Shown here piece after piece: positions 2,932 through 32,000 of a DNA stretch of 32,000 bases. The notes under the pieces are model-generated. The model had not been told where the DNA came from. It did not search any database and worked only from the letters and a program-made list of their open reading frames with translations. Source of the stretch: Salinispora tropica CNB-440 (GTDB lineage Bacteria > Actinomycetota > Actinomycetes > Mycobacteriales > Micromonosporaceae); assembly GCF_000016425.1 (NCBI RefSeq), contig NC_009380.1:1150144-1182143 (forward strand). The letters are read 5' to 3'. The position numbers were made by a program, and so were the translations under genes. Positions within the stretch are counted from its first letter, which is position 1, and each line of letters starts with the position of its first letter.

Positions 2932-2935
<4 letters not shown>
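1142..2935 (-). CDS. salC: Free-standing ketosynthase with a non-canonical active site (SalC-type bicyclising/off-loading KS)
   Basis: 597-aa ORF with a PKS-type KS fold (IIGASCRFPG, TAVCSGFHYAVHLACQSL, GNIGHAGVVAG, GGGGYNAHLVLEE). The first catalytic His motif reads YEANGFGMP instead of EAHGTGT. ATGA overlap with the salB stop at 2932-2935. Confidence 0.95.
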
Positions 2936-4826
<1,891 letters not shown>

Positions 4827-4830
<4 letters not shown>

Positions 4831-7800: not shown

Positions 7801-10800
7801 CCGCCGCCAGCGACGGTGCCCTTGACGGCGCCGGGGTACGACCTGCCAGCGGAAATATGCGCCAGGCCGTCGAGTAGATCGTCGCGATCACGCACCACGA
7901 AAGCGATCCGGTGTGGAAGTGGGGTGCGCCGGGTCGCCAGGGTGTACGCCAGGTCCGGCAGCCATGGTGCGGCATTTCGCTCGACATGGTTGGACAGCTC
8001 TCGGCAGGTGTCCCGTAGCGCGTCAGCGGAATGGGCGGTTACGGGCAGCAGGGAAAGGGGCGTCTCCTCGGCCCGCGCCGTCGCGGAACCGATGGCCGCC
8101 TGGGGCTCGGTATGACGCCCGCGTGGTGCGCACAGGAAGGATCCGGCGGCGACCGGTTGACCCACGGTATGCAGTTCACCCAGCGAGGCGAGTAGGCTCC
8201 ACGCCTCGTCCGTCCCTCGTTGAAGCGACGCCAGGCACATGACGGGGCGCCTCGTCGCGCCCTCCCGTTCGCTGTCGAGGCTTGCCCGTACGCCCTTGAG
8301 TAGGACCGGGTGCGGACTGAGCTCCAGTACGACGTCGATGTCGTGCGCCGCCATGGTGTCCAGGGCGGCCGTGAGCCGGCTCTCCTGGCGGACGTTGTCC
8401 GGCCAATAGTCCGGGCCCAGGGATTCGCCGTCGATTTCTTTCCCGGTGACCGTCGAGATCATCGGCAGCTGAGCCGGGCGCGCGACGATGCCGTTGATCT
8501 CCGACCGCAGGGGTGTGAGCACGGGGTCCATCAGCGGCGAGTGGGATGCGTAACCCATGCGTACCCGGTGGGCTGCGATGTCCGCTGCCGCGAACCGGTC
8601 GGTCAGCGCCCGGATCGCGGTGGTATCCCCTGAGACCAGCGTAGAGGCCGGGCCGAGGCGTCCAGCTAGCGTGGGTCGCTCCTCGACCGCTGCTAGGTGC
8701 CCGGCGACAACTTCGGGGACGGCCGCGACGACCAGGCTATCGCCGCGACCCACGGCTAGGCGTTGCACGAGCCGTGCGTGCGTGGCCGCTACCAAGGCCG
8801 CGTCGTCGAGGCTGAGCGCACCCGTGAGGTGGGCGGCTGCGATTTCGCCGACACTCTGGCCGATTACCAGATCGGGCTCCACACCGAGCGAACGCCAGGC
8901 GTCGGCCAGGGCGACCTGGACGCAGAACAGCATCGGCTGGACGATCTCCATGTCGTCGAGCCGGGCGTGCGACTCGTCGTCGAAGAGCCGGTCGAGCACT
9001 GAGAAGCCGAGGATTCGTTCTATCCGCTCAGCCGCCCGCACCAGCGATCGCCGGAACGCGGGCATGCCAGCAACCAGCTGTCGGCACATGCCGAACCACT
9101 GGGAGCCGGTTCCGGAGCAGAGAAACGCGACGCGGGGTCGACGAAGAGCTGTCTCCGCAGTGGACAGGCCGGGTAGGGGCCGGCCCTCGGCGTACGCGTC
9201 CAGCTGCGCCCGCAGCTCGGCTGTGGTACGCGCGGCTGCCGACAGCCGGAAACGGCCGGTGCCCAGCGTGTCGAGCGCCTGCCGGCAGGCCGCAGCCAGG
9301 TCGACTCGGTCCTCCGCGAGAGCGGAGCGCAGCGCAGCCACCTGGTTGGTGAGCTCCTGCGTGGAATCCGCCGCTAGCAGCAATAGGGCGGCCTCAGGCT
9401 GCGCCAGTTCCTCTGTCACCAGGTGGCAGTTCGTCCCGCCGAAGCCAAAGGCGCTGATTCCCGCGCGCCGTAGATCTGACCGGCGATGCCACGTGGTTGT
9501 CGCATCCTGGACGCGCAGGTGACCTTCGGCGAAGGGAACCTGAGGGTTGGGGCGGCTGTAGTGCAGGCTGGCGGGCAGGATGCCGTTACGCATCGCCAGG
9601 GCGACCTTGGCGAGACCGGCGACGCCGGCCGCCGGCTCCAGGTGGCCGATGTTCGTCTTCACCGAACCGATGCGGAGCTCGTTACCTGGTTCGCGATCGC
9701 GACCGAGCACCGTACCGAGGGCCTTGGCCTCGATGGGGTCACCCAGCGGTGTGCCTGTGCCGTGGCACTCCACATAGTCCACGAGCCATGGTGCCAAGCC
9801 GGCCCGGCGGTACGCGGTACGTAGTAGGGTCTCCTGAGCACGTGGGTTCGGGGCGGTGAGCCCGTTGCTCAGGCCATCGTTGTTGACGGCGCTGCCGCGG
9901 ATCAGGCAGTAGACGGGCAGCCCGCGTTCCAGCGCCACGCGCAGGGGCGTCACGACGACGACGGCGGCTCCTTCGCCCCGTACGGTGCCGTCGGCACGGG
10001 CGTCGAAGGTCTTGCACCGGCCGTCCGGCGAGAGAGCGCCTGTCTCGTTCATGGCCAGGTAGTGTGGCCCAAAGATATTGAGAGTGACGCCGCCGGCGAG
10101 GGCGAGCTCGCTCTCGCCCGACCACAATGACTGGCACGCGAGATGGACCGCGACCAGCGAGGATGAGCACGCGGTGTCGATCGCCATGCTGGGGCCCTGC
10201 AGGGCGAGGGCGTATGAGACCCGGTTGGCGATGATGCTGTCGTGCATTCCGGTCGCCGCGTGCGGTCCGATTTCGAACTGCGCTGCCGCCTCGTGCGCCA
10301 GGGCCGAGTAGTCGCACCAGCTGGTGCCCACGAAGACCCCGGTGTCGGTCCCGGCGAGGTTGCCGGGCGCTATGCCGGCATCCTCCAGCGCCTCCCAGGC
10401 GAGCTCCAGCATCAACCGCTGCTGCGGGTCCATCACACGGGCTTCGCGCGGTGAGATCCCGAAGAAGAGAGGGTCGAACAGGTCGATGTCGTCGAGGAAG
10501 CCGCCCCAGCGGAAGGACGTATCGTCGATGTCCGCGTTGCCGAGCAGGTCACGCCGGCGCTGCGGGACCGGCCGTATGGCGTCGTGCCTGTTGACGAGCA
10601 AGCGCCAGAAGGCCGACGGGTCCGCCGCCCCCGGTAGCCGGCAGCCGATCCCCACGAGTGCGAGCGGTTCGGGTGGGGCACCGTCTTCCGGCCGGTGTCG
10701 TGTGGCCGTGCCGCCGGCGGATTCCTCGACTCGTCGTCCGCGCGCCAGTGCGACGGACAGGCCTTCCAGTGTGGGGTGATCCCAGAGGAACGTGATCGGT

Positions 10801-10988
10801 ACGGGCCGGGCGAGAAACTCGGACAGGGCGGCGACGAGTGCCGTCGACTTCAGCGAGTCCAGGCCATACCGATGCAGGGGGGCCCACCGATCCACGGAAT
10901 CCCGGGGGACACCGAGCAGATCCACAAGCCAGGTGAGCAGGAATTCCCTGATCGCGTGGACACCGTGCTCAGCTTGCTCACCAGACAT
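4827..10988 (-). CDS. salA: Hybrid PKS-NRPS megasynthase, domain order ACP-KS-AT-AT-ACP-C
   Basis: 2053-aa ORF. Domains by hand count (approximate). ACP_L nt 10734-10961 (GLDSLKS). KS 9405-10670 (DTACSSS, ECHGTGT, NIGH). AT_L 8274-9137 (GQSVGE, GYASHS). AT1 6939-7796 (GHSIGE, RPGHS). ACP 6429-6656 (GLDSML). C domain 4869-6236 (HHVAAD). No TE domain. GAGGGA sits 5 nt upstream of ATG 10988. Confidence 0.97.
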
Positions 10989-12216: not shown

Positions 12217-12282
12217 GTCGTCCTACGACGTGGTGCCCGATTGATGTCTGGTCGGGCTTGTCTCGCGGATCGCGGGCAGGGT

Positions 12283-12322
12283 GGCCCAGGTCGGGCTGCA
12301 ACGGCCCAGGTCGGGCTGCAAC
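12283..12322 (+). repeat. Perfect 20-bp tandem duplication (GGCCCAGGTCGGGCTGCAAC x2)
   Basis: Read directly: 12283-12302 is identical to 12303-12322. It lies inside the reverse-transcriptase relic, and 20 nt is not a multiple of 3, so it shifts the frame. Confidence 0.9.
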
Positions 12323-12445
12323 TGCACCCGACCAAGGCCCGGATCGGCCACTGTTCGCGGCTGGATCCGGTACTACGGGCCGGTACGCCGCTCGGCGTGG
12401 CCGTCCACTTCTTGCCCACGTCTACGCCTACCTGGCGCGGCAGAG
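12283..12445 (+). pseudogene. Decayed relic of a group-II-intron-like reverse transcriptase (C-terminal region only; frameshifted and internally deleted)
   Basis: Three frames together give AQVGLQLHPTKARIGHC, RGWIRYYG and RYAARRGRPLLAHVYAYLAR. These match the remembered pattern of bacterial RT/maturase ORFs (GLxLHPxKTRIV ... RGWxNYYG ... LLxRINAYLxRW). No intact ORF, no RT domains 1-5. Confidence 0.5.
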
Positions 12446-12477
12446 CCGGGTGACGGGAGAGACGCCCAGATCGGCGA

Positions 12478-12504
12478 GAGCCGGGAGGTGAAATTCCTCC
12501 CGGC
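12478..12504. terminator. GC-rich hairpin H1 (10-bp stem AGCCGGGAGG/CCTCCCGGCT, loop TGAAATT) about 50 nt downstream of the salL stop; one of two related copies
   Basis: Read directly from the sequence. No clear U-tract follows. A near-identical structure with compensatory stem changes occurs at 20937-20969. Confidence 0.4.
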
Positions 12505-12556
12505 TACTCGACCTAGGGACAGGAGCTACCCAGCAGCATGCCGCCCCCTGGGTCAG

Positions 12557-13408
12557 CTACCCGAGCACCGGGCCCAGGTTACTATCGGGCACCCTTGGGG
12601 AGACGGTGATGCTGTCACCGGGTACGACAGGCCACTTCTCGATGAAGTTGGACTGGTTGAGCCCGAGGGCAAGCCGGCCCCGACTGTTGAGGTACAGCAG
12701 TGGCTGCCCCTCGTCGACCTCGCCGAAGGTTTTGCAGAAGGGCAGCTCGAGCACCGTGTCGCTGAGGGCTTCGATCTTGACTTCCAGTCGCTCCCCGTCC
12801 TGCAGCATCGAGCCAATCAAGTGGGTGGGTATGTTGGTCCATACGTTGCCGAAAGCCCGGTCGATGCGTACCACCTCCCCGCGGATCCCGCCCTCCACCT
12901 CGCTGGCGGAGGCATAGGGCAGCCGAACGATCTGCTTCGGGTCGATCCGGGGGCCGACGGCGGCAAGGTCGGTGCCGGCAGCGAGGTGGGCGGCGCAGGC
13001 AGCGACGATGTCCTTGCCGTACCAGGTTGGCGTCACCGGCTGGTTCATGACATCGGGGGAGAGGACCTCGTGACACTCGACCGCAGGGGAGGCGTCGAGT
13101 GCGAAGCTCAGCAGCCCATTGTTGGGTCCGACGAGCAGTTGACCCTTCTCATTGCGCACTGCAATGGTGTGGGTCGCCGTGCCGGTCTCGGGATAGACGT
13201 ATGCGCAGATGACCGTATGAGCCGGGAAGGAGTGCGGGACATCAGCGAGAAACAGTGCGCCTTCCCGGACATCAAAGGGCGCGACGTCATGGGTTATGTC
13301 CACGATCGTCGCTGCCGGCGCGACGCCGTACATGACTCCCTTGCAGAGTGCGTGGGCTTCGTCGGCGGACCCGACGTCGGAGAGGAAGGCAATGAGATTG
13401 TGCTGCAT
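12557..13408 (-). CDS. salL: S-adenosyl-L-methionine:chloride adenosyltransferase (5'-chloro-5'-deoxyadenosine synthase; fluorinase-family chlorinase)
   Basis: The track ORF (317 aa) starts too early. ATG 13408 has GGAGG 8 nt upstream and gives a 283-aa protein, [25 protein letters not shown]...DSNLGPVLG. To my memory this is the SalL sequence. Tyr70 (ICAYVYPE) and Gly131 (TWYGKD) fall at the published numbering. Confidence 0.97.
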
Positions 13409-13510
13409 GGTGAGTGACCTCCGTTTTATCGGTCGGAAACCGACCTCAGGATTGGTTGTTGTGCAGACCACGAACCGCAGGCTTCTCCGTCGGAAGCGAG
13501 ACAGGAACAT

Positions 13511-14315: not shown

Positions 14316-14552
14316 CAACCACCTCCTGACCTGTTCGGCAGCCCTTCACCACTCTGCAACGACCTCGTCCGACGGCTGCCCTGGCCGGCCGATCGCTAGC
14401 CCACGCTATGAGATCGTTTCGGGCGCCGCGACAGACCAAAGTTGTAGGCGAACTGTGACCTTCAGCAGATGCCGCCGGCGAGGAAGACCGAGACTCTGGG
14501 CTGCATCGCCGGGCGTCGGCGAGAAAGCCGCCCCCCAGGGAGGTACACGACC

Positions 14553-15332
14553 GTGTTTGTACTGTTCATCGGCGACATCGTGGGGGACGAGGGGACACGG
14601 TACCTGGTAGACCGGCTGCCCGAACTGCGTGCCCGCCACACGGTGGACCTCGTTGTGGCGAATGCCGAGAACTCGGCGGCCGACGGCTTGGGGATGGGTC
14701 GTGTGCAGGTGGAGCAACTGCTGTCCGGAGGGGTTGACGTCATCACCGGCGGAAACCACTCCTGGGACAGCCCAGAGTCGGTCGGGATGCTCAATCTGCC
14801 GCAAGTGGTTCGGCCCGCCAACGTGGACCCCGAGGTACCCGGTCGGGGCTTTGTCCATGTCCCGGTCGGCGAGGAGATGGTCACCGTACTGAACCTGGCT
14901 GATGGCTGCGCCATGGCGTCGACCAAGGCGACTGCGGGACGGGTGGGTCCCGCCTACTCGGCATGGGAGGCGGCCGACCGGCGCGGCATCACGATCGTCG
15001 ACTACCACGGCGATCACGTGCTGGAAAAGCAGATCTTCGCCCACACCGTCGACGGCACCGCCGCCGCGGTCGTCGGCACGCACACCCACGAAGCCACCGA
15101 CCTGCCACGGCTGCTGCCGAACGGCACGGCGTTCGTCACAGAGGTGGGCATGACGGGACCGGACGGCGGCGTGCAGGGTTTCGCTCCCGCAAACCTGGTG
15201 AACAACCTGCGGACCACCGGCAACCCGTTCGACGGGCCGATGCCCACGGTGCATCGAGCCCCGATGGTGCTCGGCGCGGTCCTGATCGAGATCGTCGGCG
15301 GTCTTGCCGCCGGCATCCAGCGGGTGCGGTGA
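14553..15332 (+). CDS. salN: YmdB-like calcineurin-type metallophosphoesterase (proposed 5-chlororibose-1-phosphate phosphatase)
   Basis: Family motifs LFIGDIVGDEG, VANAENSA, GGNHSWD and GTHTHE. GTG 14553 is preferred because GGGAGG lies 9 nt upstream and homologues start at xxVLFIGD. The track ORF begins at 14469. Confidence 0.85.
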   Translation: MFVLFIGDIVGDEGTRYLVDRLPELRARHTVDLVVANAENSAADGLGMGRVQVEQLLSGGVDVITGGNHSWDSPESVGMLNLPQVVRPANVDPEVPGRGFVHVPVGEEMVTVLNLADGCAMASTKATAGRVGPAYSAWEAADRRGITIVDYHGDHVLEKQIFAHTVDGTAAAVVGTHTHEATDLPRLLPNGTAFVTEVGMTGPDGGVQGFAPANLVNNLRTTGNPFDGPMPTVHRAPMVLGAVLIEIVGGLAAGIQRVR

Positions 15333-15336
15333 TCGT

Positions 15337-16170
15337 ATGTTGGACGGCAGCGCCGTACACGGCCAATCGGCGGTCCCCGCCGGCTACCAGGTGGTTGACC
15401 TTTCGGTGACCATCGCCGAGGACTTGCCATGCTACTGGGAGGGGCATCAACCCTTCCAGCACAAGACCTGGAACTGGTTTGCCGACCATCGCAACGCGAT
15501 GGCCTCCGTCTACAGCCGCGGCGGCCCGTACGCGACCCGTTGGATGGCCATCGACGAGCACACCGGAACCCACTTTGATGCTCCTCTGCACTTCATCCCA
15601 CCTCCGGACTCCGGCCTGCCGGGAGCGGGTCCGGCGGGTGCCATCTCGGCTGACCAGGTCGGGCTGGCGAGCCTCATGGGAGCCGCCGCGGTAATTGACG
15701 TGGCATCTCCCGGTGGAGGCGAAGGCGGGATGAGCCCGCTGATCCACCCGTCGGCGATCGTGGCATGGGAGGCCGCCAACGGCATGCTGAACCCCGGTGA
15801 GATCGTGCTGCTGCGCACCGGCTGGGACCGGCGCTACCGACGCGGTGCCGCCGGGGGCGGATATCTTCGTGACGTCCTCGCCGGGCGGAGCCCCGGATGG
15901 CCGGCGCCGACAGAGCCCACAGTGGAGCTACTGCTGACTCGGGGGGTGCAATGCCTTGGCATTGACGCGCCGTCGATCGGCCCGGCGCACGATCCGGTGG
16001 GCGTGCATGTGCGGGGCCTGGGACAGGGAATGGTCTACGTCGAGTGTCTCGCCGCGCTCGACGCGCTGCCCCCTCGCGGCGCGTGGTTTTGTTTCCTTCC
16101 CATCAAGGTGGAGGGCAGCACTGGGGCTCCTGGCCGGGCGATCGCCCTGATGCCGGCCACGGAGTCGTGA
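15337..16170 (+). CDS. salO: Putative cyclase / kynurenine-formamidase-like metal hydrolase; role unknown
   Basis: Cyclase-family signature HTGTHFDAPLHF plus GIDAPSIGP. ATG 15337 lies 4 nt after the salN stop. The longer track ORF from 15304 overlaps salN. Confidence 0.8.
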   Translation: MLDGSAVHGQSAVPAGYQVVDLSVTIAEDLPCYWEGHQPFQHKTWNWFADHRNAMASVYSRGGPYATRWMAIDEHTGTHFDAPLHFIPPPDSGLPGAGPAGAISADQVGLASLMGAAAVIDVASPGGGEGGMSPLIHPSAIVAWEAANGMLNPGEIVLLRTGWDRRYRRGAAGGGYLRDVLAGRSPGWPAPTEPTVELLLTRGVQCLGIDAPSIGPAHDPVGVHVRGLGQGMVYVECLAALDALPPRGAWFCFLPIKVEGSTGAPGRAIALMPATES

Positions 16171-16201
16171 GGTCCTCGTCCGCAGGCCGCGGCGACGACG
16201 G

Positions 16202-16879
16202 TCAGGCCACCAGGCTGCTCGTCTCCAGCATCGCGTTCGGGCCGATCAAACCCATCGCCGCGAGCCTGTTGACGGCGGCCACTCGTGAGCGCACATCGAG
16301 CTTGTCGTACGTGTTGGTGAGGTGGCGCTTGACCGTGCCCTCGGAGATGGAGAGGCGGCCGGCGATCTGGGCGTTGCTCAGGCCCGCCGCGACCAGCTCG
16401 ATCACCTCGAACTCCCGGCCCGACAGTGACCGCGTGCCGACCCCGGTCAGATGTTGCAGCATGCTCTTCTGCACGGAAAGCACGGCGCTGTCGCGGTTGC
16501 GGCTCACGATCCGTACGACGCTCAGCAGTTCCTCACGCGTCGAGTTCCGCGAGACGTACGCCCACGTACCCATGGCGAGGTACCGGCGCGCCAGGCGCAC
16601 GTTCTCGTGCATCGCCAGGATTACCAGCCGGGGCTGGCAGGTCGCGGCCAGGATCTGGCCGACCAGCCGCATGATCCCTTGGTCAGACGGGCCGACGCTC
16701 AGCAGTACCACGTCTGGCGCCGTCCGTCGAACCAGGGCCGCCGCCATGGGCCCCGCCGCCGCCTGCCCGACCACCCGCAGGTCGGGCTCGCGATCGCAGA
16801 TCTCGGCCATCGCCTCTCGAAAAATAGTGCTGTCGCCAAGGAGTAGAATCCGTTTCGGACTAGATTCTATGCTGGTCAT
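16202..16879 (-). CDS. salR2: LuxR/NarL-family response-regulator-like transcription factor with a degenerate receiver domain
   Basis: C-terminal HTH: [43 protein letters not shown]. The N-terminal REC fold ([12 protein letters not shown]...[12 protein letters not shown]) lacks the acidic pocket. Convergent with salO, 31-bp gap. Confidence 0.9.
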
Positions 16880-17261
16880 TAGTCGACTCGATCCGCAATC
16901 GGAGTGGCTCTGGTCGAAGCGGCTTCAAGAATGTTTGACACGCCGCCGAAGGTAGTTGGGTGCACCTATGTTCGCCTTTCGCTTAAGGCTTGAGCGATCT
17001 GGTGGACTCTGGCCACTTGGCAAGTAGCAGCACTTTATCATCCTGTTGGCCGGCCTGCCCAACGTGCGTCATCGGCATGATTAATCCACATCATCGAACT
17101 TATGCAATTGATTGATTGCTGCCGCAGCGGGAAGATTGGCCCGAATAAGTCGACTAGTGGGCGGGCTGTGGATTTCTCGTCCAGGCATTCCGCTCCGGAC
17201 GGTAATTCGCGTGGGCTACCTCACCATGATCGGTTCAGACGAATTGCCGAGAAGGAGTCGC

Positions 17262-25157: not shown

Positions 25158-26594
25158 TCAGCCGCGTAGAATCTCGGCGACCAGCAACGCGAGTTCTAAG
25201 CTCTGCCGCATGTTCAGCCGCGGGTCGCAGGCAGTCTCGTAGCGATCCGGTAGGTGTTGGTCCTCGACGCCACGTATCCCGTCGAGGCACTCGGTGACGT
25301 TCTCACCGGTGAGCTCGACGTGGACGCCTCCCGGATGGGTGCCCAGACTGCGGTGCACGTCGAAGTAGCCCAGCAACTCGTCAACGACCCGGTCGAGGCG
25401 CCGGGTCTTGAAGCCGTGTGAGGACTGCTCGGTGTTGCCGTGCATCGGATCGCACTGCCAAACGACCTTGGCGCCCGCGGCCGTGACCTTGTCGACGATC
25501 GCCGGAAACACGTCACGTACCTGGCGGTTGCCCATGCGGCTGATCAGGGTGAGCCGCCCGGGCAGGTTCTCGGGGTTGAGCCGCTCGCACAGCTCGATCG
25601 CAGCATGCGGGCTGGCGGCCGGGCCGAGCTTCACGCCGATTGGGTTGGCGATACGCGCGACAAAGTCGACGTGCGCGTGGTCAAGCTGGCGGGTGCGTTC
25701 GCCGACCCACAGAAAGTGACCCGACAACGCGTATGCCCGGCCGTCGTTGATTCGGGTCAGCGCCCGGTCGTACTCGAGCACCAGCGCCTCGTGCGAGCAG
25801 TACACCTTTGATTCCCGCAACGCGTGGCGCTCGCTCGGCCCCCACGCGCGGACGAAGCCGCGCGCCCGGTCGATCTCGCCGGAGATGACCTGGTACCGGG
25901 CTCCGGCCGGGGAAGCGCGGATGAGGTCGTAGGTATCGTCGTACAGCTCTTCGAGGTCGGTCAGATCGTCCGGCGGATAGGCGCGGATGAGGTTCATCGC
26001 GACCGCGGAATTCGCGTACGCATCGATCATGCGCTGCGGATCGGCGGCCCGCGCCGACTCGGCCGGGTGCCGCGCATTGATAATATCGCCACGGTACGCG
26101 GGCAACCCCAGGGAATCGGTCGCCGAGGATCGGGGCTTCCCGTACTGGCCGGCGAGGCGCGCCACCTTCACCACCGGAACGGAACCGCCGTACGTTATCG
26201 CCATCGCCATCTGCAGCAGCGTCCGCGTGGTGCCCAGCAGGTGGCTCTCAGTGTTTCCGGTGAACGTCTCGGCGCAGTCGCCGCCCTGTAACAGGAAGGC
26301 GCGTCCTTCGCATACCTCGGCCAGGCGGTGACGCAGTTCATCGACCTCGTAGGGTGTGACGATCGGCGGCATTTTGCCGAGTGTCGCGCACACTGCTGCC
26401 ACCTCGGCGGGATCGGGCCAGGGTGGCACCTGCCGCCGGGGTAGCTCGCGCCACCGGTCTAGGCAGAGTTCTCTGTCGCCATCGTTCGTCGCTGGTGGCG
26501 AATGGCGGATCGACCGCTCCACGCCGGGTCGCATGCGCGTTCCATACACACCAAAATCGCCTCTCGTATGGGGCAGGAGTTGATTCGTTGCCAT
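25158..26594 (-). CDS. salU: Class II (plant/AroAII-type) 3-deoxy-D-arabino-heptulosonate-7-phosphate synthase
   Basis: Motifs LLQGGDCAETF, GQYGKPRSS, YRGDIIN, HFLWVGERTRQ and NPIGVKLGP. Start uncertain: ATG 26594 is the longest, but ATG 26534 gives an N-terminus closer in length to known class II enzymes. Confidence 0.9.
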   Translation of the reverse strand: MATNQLLPHTRGDFGVYGTRMRPGVERSIRHSPPATNDGDRELCLDRWRELPRRQVPPWPDPAEVAAVCATLGKMPPIVTPYEVDELRHRLAEVCEGRAFLLQGGDCAETFTGNTESHLLGTTRTLLQMAMAITYGGSVPVVKVARLAGQYGKPRSSATDSLGLPAYRGDIINARHPAESARAADPQRMIDAYANSAVAMNLIRAYPPDDLTDLEELYDDTYDLIRASPAGARYQVISGEIDRARGFVRAWGPSERHALRESKVYCSHEALVLEYDRALTRINDGRAYALSGHFLWVGERTRQLDHAHVDFVARIANPIGVKLGPAASPHAAIELCERLNPENLPGRLTLISRMGNRQVRDVFPAIVDKVTAAGAKVVWQCDPMHGNTEQSSHGFKTRRLDRVVDELLGYFDVHRSLGTHPGGVHVELTGENVTECLDGIRGVEDQHLPDRYETACDPRLNMRQSLELALLVAEILRG

Positions 26595-26825
26595 TCCTTG
26601 TCGGCCATGGATGACAGGCTGGAAACAGCCGAGCCAATCATATCACCGGAGTTTAATGAATATGAGCATCCTTTATCATCAGTTCAATCGATAGAGGATA
26701 TCAAGAAACTTCCATTGAACGGGCTGCGGGGCATCGGACAGACTCGGCCCTGGAGATTCCCGGCTAGGGTCAGTAGCGCATGTTCAGCCCGTTCTTCAGG
26801 TATGGCTGATTTCGGGAAGGGCTAA

Positions 26826-27125
26826 ATGATCACGCATATCGTACTCTTCAAGCTCAAGGATGGCGTAGACCGCGACGCCCGGCAGGTCACCGAGGCGGTG
26901 GAGCTCGCCCGTGAGGTCGGCCGCCACGTACCGGAACTCGTCGACTGGCGCACCGGCTGGAACACGGTCGACCGGGACATCGCCTACGACTTCGCCGCCA
27001 TTGGCGTGCTGGCTGATCTGGTGGCACTGCAGCGCTACCAGGAAAATGCATTCCACCGAGCCGCCATCGAGAAGTGGAGACTGATATCCGACTGGGTCGT
27101 GGCCGACCTGGCTGACCCTGATTGA
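26826..27125 (+). CDS. Dabb (stress-responsive dimeric alpha/beta-barrel) domain protein; function unknown
   Basis: 99-aa ORF, MITHIVLFKLKDG...YDFAAIGVLADLVALQRYQENAFHRAA, a typical Dabb pattern. GGGAAGGG lies upstream. First gene of the plus-strand operon. Confidence 0.85.
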   Translation: MITHIVLFKLKDGVDRDARQVTEAVELAREVGRHVPELVDWRTGWNTVDRDIAYDFAAIGVLADLVALQRYQENAFHRAAIEKWRLISDWVVADLADPD

Positions 27126-27157
27126 CCTGCGCGACCATACCGTCGAATCGCCCTAAC

Positions 27158-28588
27158 ATGTGGGGGCTCGGAATGTTCACACAGTACTATCCGGAAGACG
27201 CCGCTCTCACAGTCGAGCTGCGTAATCAGGTTGAGGCGTTCATTGCCGGCAAGTGGGACGCGGCGATGCTGGCAGCGCACCAGACCCGCAAGCTGCGTGA
27301 GGTCGTTGCTTTTGCCCGCGACAACTCGCCGTTTTACGGGGAGCGCCTGGTCGGGGTGACCGACGAGGTGATCGCGGCCCTGCACCCCGGTAACCTGCGC
27401 GACCTCCCGTTCACGACGAAGGATGACCTGCGGCGGGCGCAGTTCGACATGTTGTCGCGGCCGCTCTCCGACGCGTGGATCTTCTACGAAACCACGGGCA
27501 CCACTGGTGTTGCGACACCGTGTCCACGTACCAATGTGGACTCTTTACACAACAACACCATTCTCACGGCGTACTACCGCGACATTTTCGGCGCGCGTGG
27601 CAGCGGCCAGGTCATCGGTATCTCGGGCCCGAGTGAGCTGCACTCTACCGGCGACACCTTCGGCGACGTTTGCCGCAGCCTGGGCCACGCGGTCGCCAAG
27701 ATGTGGCCACACTCGCCGATGGTCGGCTTCGACCGGGCCCTGGAACTGATGCGTCGGCTACCCGTGACCGGCCTGTTCTGCACGCCCGGCATGGCCATGC
27801 ACCTGGCACAGCGAGCCATCGACGCCGGGCTGCGGCCGCGGCTGGACTTCTCCCTCGATCTGCTGCTGCTCACCGGCGAGCTGCTCTCGCCTAGTCTGCT
27901 GACCAACATCGGCCTGCTCTGGGACGCCGAGGTGCACAACGTGCTCTACGCCTCACAGGAGGCCTCCGTGCTAGCGGCGGCGACTTCGGACGGTCGGCTG
28001 CGAACCGCCCCGCTGATCAACCTCTACGAGGTCATCGATCCCGACAGCGGGGAACCGGTCGATTCCGACGGTGCCGGCCAGTGCTACGGCGAGCTCGTGG
28101 TCACCAACCTCTACTTGGGCGCCAAGCCTCTCATCAGATACCGCACCGGAGACCTGGTCCGGATGACCGAGTCTGGCGTGTCTGCCGCCGTGCCCGCACC
28201 CTCGGTCGAGGTCCTCGGCCGGGCACACGATCGGTTGACGCTCAACGGACACCTCATCAGCGGATATGACTTCGAGAATCTTTTGCTCGGCCAGTTCCGT
28301 GGCTTCTGTGACTACCAGGTCACAATCAAGCGCGACGATGCTGGCGTCGATCGAGTCGCTCTGACGCTGCGGTCCGATCCCACCATCGGCTTTCCGAGCG
28401 TCGAGGGTGCCGTGCAGCAGTGCCTCGACGAGCTCGACACGCCGCTGACCGTACGGTTCGGCACTCCCGGCGCGATCACCGGGACTGGCGCGATGGTGAG
28501 CTGGAAGGCTGCCCGCGTGATCGACCAGCGGACCGGCCAGTCGGACGAGGTCGAAGCGGCCGAGAACATCGCGGCGTCGAGGTCCTGA
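27158..28588 (+). CDS. PaaK / coenzyme-F390-synthetase-like adenylate-forming enzyme (ANL superfamily); substrate unknown
   Basis: Motifs LRDLPFTTKDDLR, YETTGTTGVATP (P-loop equivalent of SSGTTGKPT), GELVVTNLYLGAKPLIRYRTGD and a C-terminal SWKAARVIDQR lysine. The track start at 27122 is TTG. ATG 27158 or 27173 is more plausible. Possibly salV by cluster lettering. Confidence 0.85.
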   Translation: MWGLGMFTQYYPEDAALTVELRNQVEAFIAGKWDAAMLAAHQTRKLREVVAFARDNSPFYGERLVGVTDEVIAALHPGNLRDLPFTTKDDLRRAQFDMLSRPLSDAWIFYETTGTTGVATPCPRTNVDSLHNNTILTAYYRDIFGARGSGQVIGISGPSELHSTGDTFGDVCRSLGHAVAKMWPHSPMVGFDRALELMRRLPVTGLFCTPGMAMHLAQRAIDAGLRPRLDFSLDLLLLTGELLSPSLLTNIGLLWDAEVHNVLYASQEASVLAAATSDGRLRTAPLINLYEVIDPDSGEPVDSDGAGQCYGELVVTNLYLGAKPLIRYRTGDLVRMTESGVSAAVPAPSVEVLGRAHDRLTLNGHLISGYDFENLLLGQFRGFCDYQVTIKRDDAGVDRVALTLRSDPTIGFPSVEGAVQQCLDELDTPLTVRFGTPGAITGTGAMVSWKAARVIDQRTGQSDEVEAAENIAASRS

Positions 28589-29550
28589 TGGCGGGCTTGG
28601 ACCGGGCAGCGTCGCCCGGACTGCGGCTCGGACGCTGGGCCTACCACCGCGGCGAGTTCGTGCCGGCGTCTGATCCGCAGTTGCCGCTCAGCACGCAGGC
28701 TTTGCACTATGGGATCGGTGTATTCGAGGGGATTCGGGCGTACCGCAGCGCTGACGGCCTGTTTCTGTTCCGTGCGTACGACCACTACGAGCGCATGCTG
28801 CGTGGCTGCCGAACGCTGAGGATTCCGCTGCCGGGGAAGCCCGGCGATCTGGTCGACATCACCGTCGAGCTGCTGCGGCGCAATGCTCACGATGAAGACG
28901 TGTACGTGCGGCCGGTGGCCTACAAGCTCTCGTTGCTGCCCGGCATGCCACCTGGCGTATTCCTGAGCGGGCTGTCGGACGCCATGTCGATCATCAGCTA
29001 CAGCCTGCCGGTTGAGCGGCTCGGCCAGGGCGTGCGGTGTGGCATCAGCTCCTGGCGGCGCCCGCCACGCGACACACTGCCCGCCCAGGCGAAGATCACC
29101 GGAGGCTATGTGACGAGCGCTTTCGCTACCGACGAGGCACGAGCAGGCGGGCAGGACGACGCCATCCTGCTTGACCGCTCGGGCAACGTGGCCGAGGCGA
29201 CAACCGCCAACGTCTTCACGGTCCGCGACGGTTGCCTGGTCACCCCCCCGACAACCGGAGACCTGCTGCCCGGCATTACCAGGGACACGCTCCTCACGCT
29301 CATCCGCGAGGTGGGCCTGCCCGTCGCTGAGCGGTCGGTCAGCCCCGCCGAGCTGTTCTCCGCAGACGAGGTTTTCCTCTGTTCCACCGGCAAAGGTGTG
29401 GTGCCGGTCATCGCCGTGGCAGGCCGTGACGTCGGCACCGGTGCGATCGGCCCAGTTACCGCCAAGGTCCGTGCGCTCTACGCGGCCGCGACGACCATGC
29501 CGGGCGGTATTCACGCGGACTGGCTTACTCCCGTCATGGAGACACCGTGA
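28588..29550 (+). CDS. salW: Class IV (branched-chain / D-amino-acid type) PLP aminotransferase
   Basis: ALHYGIGVFEGIRAY and the catalytic-Lys region PAQAKITGGYVTS. ATG 28588 overlaps the upstream stop (TGATG). The track ORF from 28420 adds an Arg-rich extension inside the preceding gene. Confidence 0.9.
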   Translation: MAGLDRAASPGLRLGRWAYHRGEFVPASDPQLPLSTQALHYGIGVFEGIRAYRSADGLFLFRAYDHYERMLRGCRTLRIPLPGKPGDLVDITVELLRRNAHDEDVYVRPVAYKLSLLPGMPPGVFLSGLSDAMSIISYSLPVERLGQGVRCGISSWRRPPRDTLPAQAKITGGYVTSAFATDEARAGGQDDAILLDRSGNVAEATTANVFTVRDGCLVTPPTTGDLLPGITRDTLLTLIREVGLPVAERSVSPAELFSADEVFLCSTGKGVVPVIAVAGRDVGTGAIGPVTAKVRALYAAATTMPGGIHADWLTPVMETP

Positions 29551-30200
29551 CCAAAGCAACGACGTCGTTACCCTGTTTCGTCACCCTCACACCCGCCGCT
29601 GCGGGTGGGACGCCGACCGTGGGCACGCTGGGTCCGCCCGGCACGAGCAGCGAGCTGGCCGCGACACTGCTCGCTGGCCGGCTCGGAGCGGCCGATCCCG
29701 GGACGGTCGAGGGCGGGCCGACCAGAGTGCGGCTCTTCGATACCTATGAGAGAGCCGGGAGCGCACTGCGCGCGCGCTTGGTGACGCACGTGGTCGTGGC
29801 CAACGCCTACAAGGCCGTGCACGAGTTCTACATGGACCCGGATTTCGAGCTGGCCGTGGTGTTCGTTCTGGACACCCCGATGTACGGCATCGCCAAGCGG
29901 CGTGGTGCCGGTGCCTCGCCGCCTTCACCCACCATCGCGAGCCACCCGTCACCCGTACCCATCATCGGGCAGTTGCTGAACGGGTCCGGCGCCCACGTGG
30001 TGATGCACGCCGACTCGACCAGCTCGGCCGCACTCGCCGCCGCGGAGGGTCGGGTCGACCTGGCGCTCACCACGGCACCCGCCGCGCAGCTGTACGACCT
30101 GGAGTTCATCACGCGCACAAGATGCATTCGTATGGTCTGGTCTGCTTTTGTCCTATCGGATCCAGCTCAGGCCACTACGGAGTCAGACGGAGTCGCCTGA
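29547..30200 (+). CDS. salX: Prephenate dehydratase-fold protein (BacA/AerD/SalX-type non-aromatising prephenate decarboxylase)
   Basis: PDT-domain N-terminus VGTLGPPGTSSELAA, and a short 217-aa protein with no ACT domain. GTGA overlap with the aminotransferase stop. An alternative in-frame start is GTG 29619. Confidence 0.85.
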   Translation: MTKATTSLPCFVTLTPAAAGGTPTVGTLGPPGTSSELAATLLAGRLGAADPGTVEGGPTRVRLFDTYERAGSALRARLVTHVVVANAYKAVHEFYMDPDFELAVVFVLDTPMYGIAKRRGAGASPPSPTIASHPSPVPIIGQLLNGSGAHVVMHADSTSSAALAAAEGRVDLALTTAPAAQLYDLEFITRTRCIRMVWSAFVLSDPAQATTESDGVA

Positions 30201-30213
30201 AGGGAGCGAGCCA

Positions 30214-31203
30214 ATGCTGCTGTTGAGCGGTAAGCAAGTGCTGGAGCTGTATTCGCCGGCCGACGCGTACCAGGTCATCGCGGACGTCATGCGTCGTTAC
30301 AGCGGCGGCGGCGTCGTGCAGCCGGTGCGTACGGTGCTCAGCTCCGACCGTGACGCGTCACTCTTCGCGTCCATGCCCTGTCATGTTTCCGGCGAGGTCG
30401 ACTCGGGTTTCGGACTCAAGGCCGTACTTCACGTGCCCGGCAACGCCGAGCGCGGCCTCGTGTCGCATGTGGGTGCCATCCTCGTCTTCCACCCTGACAC
30501 CGGGCAACCGCTGGCCGTCATCGACGCCGCAGCGGTCACGAGTCTGCGTACGGCCGCAGCTTCGGCCGTAGCAACCGACGCATTGGCCCGCGCGGATGCC
30601 GGGGACCTAGCCCTGCTGGGCGCCGGAGTGCAGGCCCGCAGTCACCTGGTGGCCATGAACCGGATCCGGACCCTGCGCCGGGTTCGCGTGTGGAACCGCA
30701 CTCCCGCCCACGCCGAGCAGTTTCGGGCCTGGGCCCGCTCCCTGGTAGAGGTCGACGTCGAGCTGATGCCGACGCCGGCCGCTGCGCTGCGCGGCGCCGA
30801 CGTGGTATGCACCACGCTGGGCAGCAGCGATCCGGTGGTCTCCGCAGCCGACATCGCCCCAGGTTGCCACGTTAACGCGGTCGGGGCATCGGTGCCCAGC
30901 AAGCGGGAGCTCGACTCGGAGGCGGTCGCGTCGTGTTCTGTCTTCGTCGACAGCCGCGAGGCGGCCATGCGCGAGTCCTCCGAGATCACCATGCCGCTCG
31001 CGGAGCGACTCATCCCAGGTGACTGGTACTTCCCCGAGATCGGCGAGGTACTCCTCGGCCGGCACCCGGGCCGCACAGACCGCGACGAACGAACCCTCTA
31101 CAAGTCGCTGGGCATGGCGGCGCAGGATGTCGCGTCGGGCTTTGCCATCGTACGAGCTGCCCAGCGACTCGGCGTCGGCACGGTGACCGACATCTTCAGC
31201 TGA
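30214..31203 (+). CDS. Ornithine cyclodeaminase / mu-crystallin-family NAD(P)-dependent enzyme; role unassigned
   Basis: OCD-family pattern (MLLLSGKQVLEL..., AAVTSLRTAAASAVAT, Rossmann LLGAGVQARSHL, NAVGA). ATG 30214 has GGGAG 7 nt upstream. The track ORF starts at 30148. Possibly salY by cluster lettering. Confidence 0.85.
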   Translation: MLLLSGKQVLELYSPADAYQVIADVMRRYSGGGVVQPVRTVLSSDRDASLFASMPCHVSGEVDSGFGLKAVLHVPGNAERGLVSHVGAILVFHPDTGQPLAVIDAAAVTSLRTAAASAVATDALARADAGDLALLGAGVQARSHLVAMNRIRTLRRVRVWNRTPAHAEQFRAWARSLVEVDVELMPTPAAALRGADVVCTTLGSSDPVVSAADIAPGCHVNAVGASVPSKRELDSEAVASCSVFVDSREAAMRESSEITMPLAERLIPGDWYFPEIGEVLLGRHPGRTDRDERTLYKSLGMAAQDVASGFAIVRAAQRLGVGTVTDIFS

Positions 31204-31249
31204 GCCCGCTCGTCCTGTCATCACCACGAACGAGAACGGAGTCATCACC

Positions 31250-31543
31250 ATGGCGGCGCTTCTGATCGGCAACGTGGGTACGCTCGGTGACCCGGAGGCC
31301 ATGGCCGAGTACCGGGCAAAGGTGGGTTCGACGCTCGCCCTGCACGGTGGCGGGTTTGTCATCCGCAACGGCACGTTCGAGGTGCTGGAGGGAATCTGGC
31401 GGCCGGACCACCTCTCGGTGATGGGCTTCCCCTCGGCCGAGCAAGCCCACCGGTGGTACCGCTCGCCCGAGTACCGCGAGATCGTGCCGCTCCGCGCCGG
31501 TACACACATGGACCTGATCCTCGTCGAGGGCCAAGCAGTCTAG
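31250..31543 (+). CDS. DUF1330-family small alpha/beta-barrel protein
   Basis: 97-aa ORF with the DUF1330-like pattern (EAMAEYRAKVGSTLALHGGGFVIRNG...FPSAEQAHRWYRSPEY). ACGGAG lies 8 nt upstream. Confidence 0.8.
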   Translation: MAALLIGNVGTLGDPEAMAEYRAKVGSTLALHGGGFVIRNGTFEVLEGIWRPDHLSVMGFPSAEQAHRWYRSPEYREIVPLRAGTHMDLILVEGQAV

Positions 31544-31576
31544 GCACCCAGAACCGTACCGGGAGGGAACGCCACT

Positions 31577-32000
31577 ATGGCCGGATTGCGGCGGCGGCGC
31601 TTCGCACAGGTGGACGTCTTCGCCGAGGAGGCATACCTCGGCAACCCGGTCGCGGTGGTGCTCGACGGCGACGGAATTACCGAGCGGGACATGGCGCAGT
31701 TCGCGAGGTGGACGAATCTGTCCGAGACGACCTACGTTCTCCCGTCGGCCGTGGCCGACTACCGCTTACGGATCTTCACACCCGGTGGTGAGATCCCCTT
31801 TGCGGGACACCCGACGCTGGGCTCGGCACACGCGTGGCTGGAGGCGGGTGGTATCCCACACTCCGACGTGCTCGTTCAGGAGTGCGACCTAGGATTGGTG
31901 ACGGTCCGCCGCGCCGTCACCGGCCTGAGCTTTGCCGCTCCGCCCCTACGGCGCGATGGCCCCCTGGCCTCCGATCACCTCGCCCGCATCGTGCGGGCTC
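31577..32000 (+). CDS. PhzF-family isomerase-like protein; 3' end beyond the right window edge
   Basis: Not in the track because it runs off the edge. Manual translation from ATG 31577 (GGGAGGGA 8 nt upstream) gives MAGLRRRRFAQVDVFAEEAYLGNPVAVVLDGDGITERDMAQFARWTNLSETTYVL...RIFTPGGEIPFAGHPTLGSAHAW, the PhzF-family signature. Confidence 0.85.
   Translation, partial: MAGLRRRRFAQVDVFAEEAYLGNPVAVVLDGDGITERDMAQFARWTNLSETTYVLPSAVADYRLRIFTPGGEIPFAGHPTLGSAHAWLEAGGIPHSDVLVQECDLGLVTVRRAVTGLSFAAPPLRRDGPLASDHLARIVRA

Follow-up and report, generated by a model that had tools for sequence, protein, structure and literature searches.

The cyclohexenylalanine operon of the Salinispora tropica salinosporamide cluster as a probable derivative of the 2,5-dihydrophenylalanine cassette

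At the end of a 32,000-nucleotide stretch of Salinispora tropica CNB-440 DNA (the window, in which all positions below are given unless a locus is named), seven genes on the + strand (26826-32000) supply cyclohexenylalanine (CHA) for salinosporamide biosynthesis. Five of them, encoding in order a Dabb-family protein, a PaaK-like ligase, a class IV aminotransferase, the prephenate decarboxylase SalX and an OCD-family enzyme, are a conserved core that recurs in the same order in 62 of the 80 loci we compared and on proteobacterial plasmids. Judging from gene order and protein similarity, the clusters that make 2,5-dihydrophenylalanine (DHP) evidently have this cassette as their core. Going by its accessory genes and its product, the CHA operon is a derivative of the DHP cassette and not a member of it. 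We lean, with modest confidence, towards a two-module explanation, in which a five-gene DHP-type core is extended by a DUF1330 and PhzF add-on specific to the CHA lineage.

The six complete operon proteins are identical to ABP53511-ABP53516 of S. tropica CNB-440, and the seventh, truncated where the window stops, matches the corresponding S. tropica gene. An upstream methylthioadenosine phosphorylase is identical to ABP53509, and the sequence cluster to which SalX belongs has one member labelled Strop_1040. The window also holds SalC-type (1142-2935, stand-alone KS), SalB-type (2932-4830, A-PCP) and SalA-type (4827-10988, KS-AT-AT-ACP-C, 2053 aa) genes. These exact matches, together with the SalA/B/C-type enzymes, therefore place the stretch in the known salinosporamide cluster, with the seven genes as its CHA sub-cluster. 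We conclude that the region is the CHA supply operon of that cluster, a locus already published. The pathway product is L-3-cyclohex-2'-enylalanine (PMC2866466), and a comparative study of 118 Salinispora genomes found the CHA-encoding block in all sal-bearing strains, at variable position (PMC8609351).

A core shared with 2,5-dihydrophenylalanine clusters

In Photorhabdus and Erwinia, the DHP cluster core consists of plu3041 (paaK), plu3042 (ilvE) and plu3043 (prephenate decarboxylase), and Plu3042, a homologue of the sal aminotransferase, is the described DHP transaminase (bioRxiv 10.1101/2025.04.26.650784, 2026 preprint). The same source reports five homologous genes in Streptomyces sp. PG2, whose knockout loses DHP and whose complementation restores it, and places the DHP cluster in about 720 genomes; its abstract also describes DHP formation in S. 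coelicolor on heterologous expression of the cluster (10.1101/2025.04.26.650784). The literature also connects DHP cassettes with Pseudomonas. Adjacent genes for a PaaK-like ligase, an IlvE-type aminotransferase and a prephenate decarboxylase occupy 27173-30200 of the window in this same order. The original prediction for this stretch, made from its DNA sequence, had listed the decarboxylation of prephenate and a final transamination as all that was established; the list leaves out that the PaaK-IlvE-decarboxylase trio is the DHP core (10.1101/2025.04.26.650784). The ligase puzzle is therefore not peculiar to CHA. Crawford et al. may have linked the sal genes to the DHP cluster before, in 2011.

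To place the operon among its relatives, loci with a SalX homologue were collected from genomes (n = 80) and homologues of the sal proteins were sought within 10 kb of that gene. The word-based SalX search had a reach limited to actinomycetes and one myxobacterium. An exhaustive SalX profile search among 1.84 billion proteins returned 633 representative clusters at E<=1e-3, and ten low-GC representatives that we inspected included BacA-like, Legionella and Kocuria proteins. The best 120 matches to the ligase were all actinomycete; the proteobacterial comparison loci, copies on Pantoea and Pseudomonas plasmids, were found by searching annotated plasmids.

A Dabb homologue adjoined the SalX homologue in 77 of the 80 loci, the ligase and the class IV aminotransferase were each found in 67 and always together (67/67), and the OCD-like gene was present in 62, all of them among the 67 with a ligase. 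DUF1330 (33 loci) and PhzF (30 loci) were less frequent, and the PhzF was a close orthologue (66-88% identity) in 17 loci and a distant one in 13. Gene order, orientation and tight spacing were conserved in Salinispora, Streptomyces, Nocardia, Kitasatospora, Nonomuraea and others. The complete seven-gene set was syntenic in Salinispora fenicalii, several Streptomyces and a Nocardia, with close homologues of SalB and, in four cases, of SalC as well. This co-occurrence supports the earlier view of the seven genes as one unit.

On Pantoea megaplasmids (such as pEuc1 of P. eucalypti) and a Pseudomonas aeruginosa plasmid, an Lrp gene is followed by Dabb-DUF2000-ligase-BCAT-decarboxylase-CMD-OCD-LysE, in which the decarboxylase, a SalX homologue, is named BacA by PGAP. 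The five shared proteins are 46, 42, 42, 37 and 32% identical to their sal counterparts (E 9e-120 to 4e-14), with the Pantoea ligase at 46% and the transaminase at 42%. In the proteobacterial cassettes DUF2000 lies between the Dabb and ligase genes, as it does in most of the 27 actinobacterial loci where it occurs. Another 37 of the 80 loci have DUF1330 and/or PhzF, and the two sets do not overlap at all (Fisher p = 2e-10, for loci that are non-independent and uncorrected for phylogeny). Neither the window nor locus L001, which extends past its end, contains a homologue of DUF2000, nor of CMD or LysE, which belong to the proteobacterial cassettes.

A neighbour-joining tree of the concatenated ligase, aminotransferase, SalX decarboxylase and OCD proteins, rooted on the proteobacterial cassettes, put DUF2000-type loci at the base. 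The sal-type seven-gene loci, S. tropica included, formed one derived clade, whose sister clade carries DUF1330 together with a PhzF that is more distant. A second DUF1330/PhzF group branched elsewhere and the tree lacks support values, so gain or loss probably happened more than once. The simplest reading of these patterns derives the CHA operon from a DHP-type cassette that lost DUF2000 and acquired DUF1330 and PhzF. The original prediction had cast all five enzymes other than the decarboxylase and the aminotransferase as catalysts specific to cyclohexenyl formation. Of the five, DUF1330 and PhzF alone are lineage-specific; Dabb, ligase and OCD belong to the core also found in DHP-type clusters of Proteobacteria and Streptomyces.

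Several other arrangements were seen around SalX homologues. In Sphaerisporangium, Nonomuraea and Kitasatospora hosts, a distant PhzF (about 30% identity to the sal protein; Pfam 198 bits) stands between OCD and DUF1330, making a third cassette variant (L023:11561-13876, L029, L039, L056 and L024), followed in L023 by a cytochrome P450 gene. Eleven loci have the Dabb and SalX-homologue pair only (L089:7222-11302, plus others among L025, L028, L031-L033, L036, L038, L049, L051, L065 and L085), without ligase, class IV aminotransferase or OCD-like gene; Cystobacter fuscus is among them, and L089, which was read in detail, encodes an EamA exporter, a class I/II aminotransferase, Dabb, the decarboxylase and MarR. 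The product of these pair-only loci presumably keeps the ring hydroxyl. Two Amycolatopsis loci (L072, L081) lack Dabb, ligase, aminotransferase and OCD near the SalX homologue, and carry DUF2000 about 3 kb upstream and a class II 3-deoxy-D-arabino-heptulosonate 7-phosphate (DAHP) synthase about 2 kb downstream.

The seven-gene set also occurs in synteny, at 59-70% identity to sal, inside multi-module nonribosomal peptide synthetase (NRPS) clusters (L090:1-20627, L011, L013-L018) in which no SalA or SalC homologue was found. L090 encodes NRPSs of 2983 and 1270 aa, thioesterases and a B12-radical SAM enzyme. The adenylation (A) domain codes in these non-sal clusters were DMTQIGMTW, DIFHVAAYA and DVQFNAHMV, none of them like that of SalB (DLLSVGGVF). 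Such clusters may encode unrecognised peptides with CHA, or an amino acid related to it, as a building block. Among the DUF2000-bearing DHP-type cassettes of Streptomyces, a nearby A domain has the code DAIVLGGTL or a variant differing at one or two residues (L046:5876-16282, L045, L054, L058-L060, L077, L079 and L041). The cassette of L046, also read in detail, has as flanking genes an MqnA-like (VitK2_biosynth) gene, one for a class I/II aminotransferase and one for a 550-aa protein without Pfam match. In these strains the product of the cassette may be built into a larger molecule and not released.

Proteins of the operon and their candidate chemistry

Family labels were assigned with Pfam and NCBIfam profile scans and solved relatives were taken from the PDB; they bear out the gene inventory of the original prediction, and its remark that most of the enzymes have no assigned reaction holds for the accessible literature, where SalX alone has one. 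SalX (ABP53514, Strop_1040; 29547..30200, + strand, GTG start, 217 aa) matches its deposited protein exactly. Mahlstedt et al. reportedly showed in 2010 that it converts prephenate to dihydro-4-hydroxyphenylpyruvate (H2HPP) with no aromatisation. The protein has a prephenate dehydratase (PDT)-like domain of about 200 aa, no ACT domain and the motif TLGPxGTSSE, the features of the BacA/AerD/SalX family; the motif is invariant in sets of 31 and of 85 homologues, and the weak PDT match (E 1.5e-3) is as expected for a divergent family. Disruption of salX, described as a prephenate dehydratase homologue, abolishes the supply of L-3-cyclohex-2'-enylalanine and permits mutasynthesis, and the mutant incorporates free amino acid precursors fed to it (PMC2866466). 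Another paper cites the 2010 work of Mahlstedt et al. for the prephenate decarboxylases of the bacilysin, salinosporamide A and aeruginoside pathways (PMC10157211). The first step of the pathway, the non-aromatising decarboxylation of prephenate to dihydro-4-hydroxyphenylpyruvate by SalX, is thus the literature-backed one.

The PaaK-like adenylate-forming ligase (ABP53512; 27173..28588, + strand, 471 aa) most likely starts at the ATG at 27173, the NCBI start, with GGGGG 8 nt upstream and no overlap with the Dabb gene. PaaK-type NCBIfam models match it at 1e-18 to 3e-29, although it lies below the Pfam AMP-binding cut-off and far below the equivalog cut-offs (67 bits against 646 for TIGR02155; 87 against 700 for NF041878). 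On these profile scores it is within the PaaK family but not a phenylacetate-coenzyme A (CoA) ligase equivalog. The best PDB relatives were AjiA1 (1e-20), NatL2 (2e-18) and PaaK (6e-15). The P-loop (T107-G112) and a C-terminal lysine, K445, are invariant in 71 homologues, and the tail (455-471) is not conserved. Neither the Zn-binding cysteine pair of NatL2 (DPCGCGW, where the sal protein has ESGVSAAVPAP) nor its locking C-terminal extension is present, and the C-terminal motif is PaaK-like.

The original prediction had proposed that this ligase makes a CoA thioester or acyl-AMP, and that this activated intermediate then undergoes ring reduction and dehydration, by analogy with the formation of cyclohexanecarboxyl-CoA from shikimate. 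An enzyme of the PaaK family with intact P-loop, Lys445 and PaaK-type C-terminus, and with none of the features that block CoA in NatL2 (PMC7204872), is what such a route would use. However, no thioesterase, acyl-CoA dehydratase, enoyl-CoA reductase or carrier protein accompanies the cassette in the 80 loci or in the proteobacterial versions, and the best-scoring solved relatives, AjiA1 and NatL2, form esters independently of CoA. The side-chain carboxylate is three carbons from the ring, where a thioester would not be expected to acidify ring protons as it does in the cyclohexanecarboxyl-CoA pathway; the OCD-like enzyme retains residues that bind a free alpha-carboxylate; and free amino acid precursors are incorporated by the salX mutant (PMC2866466), so that the end product is a free acid. 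The analogy thus found no positive support, and we consider a CoA route unlikely.

The class IV (IlvE-like) aminotransferase (ABP53513; 28588..29550, + strand, 320 aa; Pfam Aminotran_4, 163 bits) is translationally coupled to both the ligase and SalX. It scored 269 bits against NF005146 (cut-off 279) and 247.6 bits against TIGR01122 (cut-off 245.55). The OCD/mu-crystallin-family enzyme (ABP53515; 30214..31203, + strand, 329 aa; Pfam OCD_Mu_crystall, 227 bits), predicted to be NAD(P)-dependent, is the only obvious nicotinamide enzyme among the seven. Its PDB relatives are the ketimine reductase CRYM (1e-50), Delta1-pyrroline-2-carboxylate reductase (7e-48) and an archaeal alanine dehydrogenase (3e-42), and it falls below every NCBIfam equivalog cut-off. 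Residues R39, K69 and R112, invariant in 66 homologues, align with the Arg/Lys/Arg triad that binds the alpha-carboxylate in CRYM.

The three remaining proteins are a Dabb-family small alpha+beta barrel (ABP53511, an exact match; 26826..27125, + strand, 99 aa; Pfam Dabb, 55.8 bits), a DUF1330 protein (ABP53516; 31250..31543, + strand, 97 aa; Pfam DUF1330, 96 bits) and a putative isomerase of the PhzF family, the last gene of the operon (31577..32000, + strand, 141 of its 278 codons in the window). The Dabb protein has invariant H4, R50, D55, Y71 and H77 (82 sequences), and its AlphaFold model from the single sequence was too poor for fold comparison (mean predicted local distance difference test, pLDDT, 51.5). 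DUF1330 has invariant Y21, R22, R39, E47, H54 and R82. We take both families, from their Pfam clan, to be dimeric alpha/beta barrels, and hhalign found no similarity between the two subfamily alignments (probability 3.6%). The full PhzF-like gene (L001:10328-11164, 278 codons) ends about 413 nt past the window; its N-terminal half scores 115 bits against Pfam PhzC-PhzF, and TIGR00654 matches at 113 bits (cut-off 76). Its PDB relatives are YHI9 (5e-35) and PhzF (3e-24). Residues E50, H78 and D215, invariant in 32 homologues, align with the PhzF motifs SE(S/T)TF, FAGHP and EDxxTGS and presumably correspond to the catalytic Glu45, His74 and Asp208 of PhzF, so the protein looks like an active proton-shuffling isomerase.

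These three genes could instead be passengers, with Dabb as a stress protein, for example, and DUF1330 or PhzF serving regulation, resistance or something unrelated. Their roles in the pathway are predictions from sequence; the PDB relatives of Dabb (structural-genomics proteins) and of DUF1330 (3lo3 and 2fiu) are all of unknown function, and some loci have no copy of one or another of the three. Yet order, orientation and spacing hold across many genera, the active-site-like residues are invariant, the PhzF-motif residues are intact, and Dabb is next to nearly every SalX homologue. We regard the passenger explanation as very improbable. Across the operon, the conserved PhzF motifs, the OCD R/K/R triad, the ligase P-loop and lysine, and the Dabb and DUF1330 residue sets make the enzymes look active.

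For the two-module explanation, the steps after SalX may be framed by atom count. From H2HPP (C9H10O4), the keto acid of DHP, dihydrophenylpyruvate (C9H10O3), would be reached by one reduction with loss of water, and the keto acid of CHA (C9H12O3) by two reductions, a net change of four electrons. The original prediction had overlooked this need for two two-electron reductions, against one obvious NAD(P)H enzyme. Redox-neutral routes (internal NAD cycling of the OCD type, or a carbinol-to-ketone shift of the PhzF type) were dropped as complete explanations on the same count.

We assign the loss of the ring hydroxyl to the ligase and the OCD-like enzyme because these are common to DHP and CHA cassettes and absent from the 11 loci with Dabb and decarboxylase only. 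The two enzymes, perhaps with Dabb, would use ATP and NAD(P)H to remove the ring 4-hydroxyl reductively. In the chemistry we prefer, the allylic hydroxyl would be activated as an ester or adenylate and displaced by hydride to give a cyclohexadienyl keto acid; an allylic hydroxyl requires activation, which would explain the need for ATP. The leaving group could be set on the 4-hydroxyl of dihydro-hydroxyphenylpyruvate or of the amino acid, with an enzyme of an imine-reductase family placing hydride on one of the ring carbons. If the hydride attacked C6 of the endocyclic diene as the activated 4-OH departed, exactly the 1,4-diene of DHP would result. The aminotransferase, by homology with Plu3042, would install the amine.

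In the CHA lineage, the cofactor-free PhzF-like protein and DUF1330 would then move the ring double bonds by PhzF-type prototropic shifts, and one more two-electron reduction would bring the ring down to its single cyclohex-2-enyl double bond. The candidate sources of this reduction are the OCD-like enzyme acting twice, a pyridoxamine phosphate (PMP)-dependent step of the aminotransferase, or a reductase encoded elsewhere; PMP-dependent deoxygenation occurs in deoxysugar pathways. The specific chemistry suggested for the ligase and the OCD-like enzyme is tentative, and far less secure than the two-module explanation itself. As a whole, the proposal of an undescribed ATP/NAD(P)H-dependent reductive allylic deoxygenation, with PhzF-like and DUF1330 redirecting a dienyl product to the cyclohexenyl series, is likewise put forward as a possibility that we would not bet on.

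A bacilysin-like order of events would reach CHA differently. Dabb, DUF1330 or PhzF would act like BacB, moving a double bond into conjugation with the 2-keto group, and the OCD-like enzyme would act like BacG, giving tetrahydro-4-hydroxyphenylpyruvate, that is, 3-(4-hydroxycyclohex-2-enyl)pyruvate. The ligase would then activate the 4-hydroxyl for a second reductive displacement before the aminotransferase acts, making CHA a 4'-deoxy-tetrahydrotyrosine formed with no DHP-type 1,4-diene intermediate. Tetrahydrotyrosine of the bacilysin pathway has its cyclohex-2-enyl double bond already in the right place and would need deoxygenation alone, and the pairing of Dabb with SalX homologues even where ligase and OCD are missing (the 11 loci) suits a BacB-like isomerase acting on the SalX product. 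This order, however, leaves unexplained why DHP-type cassettes, with two double bonds kept in their product, also have ligase, OCD and Dabb. It still requires two hydride donors, and Pfam found neither a cupin of the BacB/AerE type nor an SDR of the BacG type in the operon. We consider it rather unlikely.

Several observations weigh against the two-module explanation and its chemistry. We found no experiment in the accessible literature that ties the sal ligase, OCD-like, Dabb, DUF1330 or PhzF gene to CHA, salX being the only one disrupted; nor was a published reconstitution of CHA biosynthesis found in the full-text literature, which leaves subscription journals uncovered. CHA requires two reductions and the set has one NAD(P)H enzyme. 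The triad of the OCD-like enzyme is that of enzymes acting on C-alpha=N bonds and would suit imine reduction better than delivery of hydride to a ring carbon, and the canonical PaaK C-terminus of the ligase would allow plain CoA ligation beside ester formation. The two add-on genes do not always come together (DUF1330 stands alone in 7 loci and a distant PhzF in 4), and the tree that orders the cassettes carries no support values. The Pantoea and Pseudomonas cassettes are called DHP-type from their genes alone, and S. tropica is not known to make DHP.

If the two-module explanation is right, a common five-gene core with a two-gene add-on merges the DHP and CHA puzzles into one: the shared genes should account for removal of the ring oxygen and the add-on for the passage from dienyl to cyclohexenyl. 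Should the proposed reductive allylic deoxygenation hold as well, DUF1330, DUF2000 and this Dabb subfamily would gain their first functions, and delivery of hydride to a ring would be new for the OCD family. Several hundred genomes have kept the ligase and OCD side by side as a pair. For DHP, long known as an antibiotic and antifungal, the accessible literature likewise gives no explanation of how the hydroxyl is removed; salinosporamide A (marizomib), whose P1 cyclohexenyl group comes from the CHA operon, is a clinical-stage proteasome inhibitor. The seven-gene cassettes in unrelated NRPS clusters are flagged as possible sources of unrecognised peptides.

Operon layout and surroundings

The seven genes are co-directional and, as originally described, tightly packed and partly overlapping, with gaps in operon order of 47, -1, -4, 13, 46 and 33 nt. 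The ligase and aminotransferase genes overlap in TGATG (28586-28590), the A at 28588 being common to stop and start, and the aminotransferase and SalX genes in GTGA (29547-29550). GC content at third codon positions is 0.79-0.87 in all seven frames, and a purine-rich, ribosome-binding-like stretch precedes five of the seven genes. An antisense open reading frame (ORF) of 415 codons (28312-29559, - strand) lies opposite the ligase and aminotransferase genes. As those + strand genes are exact matches to deposited proteins, the antisense ORF is most likely an artefact of high GC.

Upstream and transcribed divergently from the operon is a salU-type class II DAHP synthase gene (25158..26534, - strand; Pfam DAHP_synth_2, 587 bits; TIGR01358, 597 bits; 458 aa in S. 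tropica contigs), whose product probably feeds the operon with shikimate-pathway precursor. Of the 80 loci, only five have a DAHP synthase gene next to the SalX homologue; it lies upstream and is divergent in L009, from Salinispora fenicalii, and lies downstream in the other four. The intergenic region and leader (26535..26825) has a GC content of 0.515, against about 0.66 for the window, falling to 0.374 over the 91 nt of 26630-26720 (37% GC). It contains a perfect 10-nt inverted repeat, GAACGGGCTG / CAGCCCGTTC (26717-26726 / 26785-26794), with 58 nt between the arms, that ends 31 nt before the Dabb start. A scan of the leader upstream of Dabb against Rfam gave no match, and a promoter scan found one consensus match there, no more than expected by chance; the terminator scan was likewise at chance level.

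The cluster ends with this operon: the first gene called beyond it, a 102-aa ORF, is on the opposite strand about 570 nt away (L001 11734-12042). A tRNA-Lys gene (anticodon TTT; L001:11701-11775) lies about 950 nt past the window end and 537 nt 3' of the PhzF stop; it probably marks the edge of the sal cluster and is a possible integration site. Elsewhere in the window, three ORFs of 280-380 codons (12281-13417, 14406-15254 and 16044-16955) had no Pfam match at E<=1e-5 in the submitted frames, and the true genes there may be on the opposite strand, where overlapping ORFs exist.

Comparison with known systems

The bacilysin (BacA, BacB, BacG/YwfH, BacF) and aeruginoside 2-carboxy-6-hydroxyoctahydroindole (Choi; AerD, AerE, AerF) pathways begin with the same step, a BacA/AerD/SalX-family decarboxylase acting on prephenate, a family link that is cited in PMC10157211. 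Neither pathway loses the ring oxygen or uses an ATP-dependent ligase in the steps that form the amino acid, and the sal operon shares with them the first enzyme only. Their later steps are double-bond isomerisation, reduction and transamination. In place of their cupin isomerase and SDR reductase, Dabb, DUF1330, PhzF and OCD folds would have to substitute in sal.

PhzF itself, the trans-2,3-dihydro-3-hydroxyanthranilate (DHHA) isomerase, belongs to the family of the last operon protein, with the motif-aligned residues conserved and a plausibly similar class of substrate, a cyclohexadiene with an allylic heteroatom. The sal protein is, however, nearer to YHI9 of yeast, a protein of unknown function; sal has no further phz genes, and the substrate of its protein would be a prephenate-derived acid and not DHHA. 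The sal ligase shares its adenylate-forming fold family with PaaK and with NatL2 and AjiA1 of the benzoxazole pathway. NatL2 acylates a hydroxyl instead of CoA (PMC7204872), but the similarity of the sal ligase to these relatives is low (77 bits over about 370 residues), and the cysteine pair and extension of NatL2 are features that the sal protein lacks. For the OCD-like enzyme, the relatives are ketimine reductase/mu-crystallin, pyrroline-2-carboxylate reductase and archaeal alanine dehydrogenase, with conserved carboxylate residues, whereas the sal context implies a prephenate-derived substrate. With the cyclohexanecarboxyl-CoA pathway the operon has only a ligase in common, the acyl-CoA dehydratase, isomerase and enoyl-CoA reductase being absent from it and from the cassette loci.

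The DHP cassette, the closest relative of the operon as a system, has the same ligase-aminotransferase-decarboxylase trio in the same order, with Dabb upstream and OCD downstream in the proteobacterial versions, at 32-46% identity, and neither DHP nor CHA has the ring hydroxyl of prephenate. The sal operon differs in adding DUF1330 and PhzF and in having no DUF2000 and none of the proteobacterial CMD-family and LysE genes. CHA has one ring double bond and DHP two. Finally, CHA is consumed by the NRPS SalB. DHP, by contrast, is described as an antifungal that is released, and a LysE exporter gene forms part of the proteobacterial cassettes.

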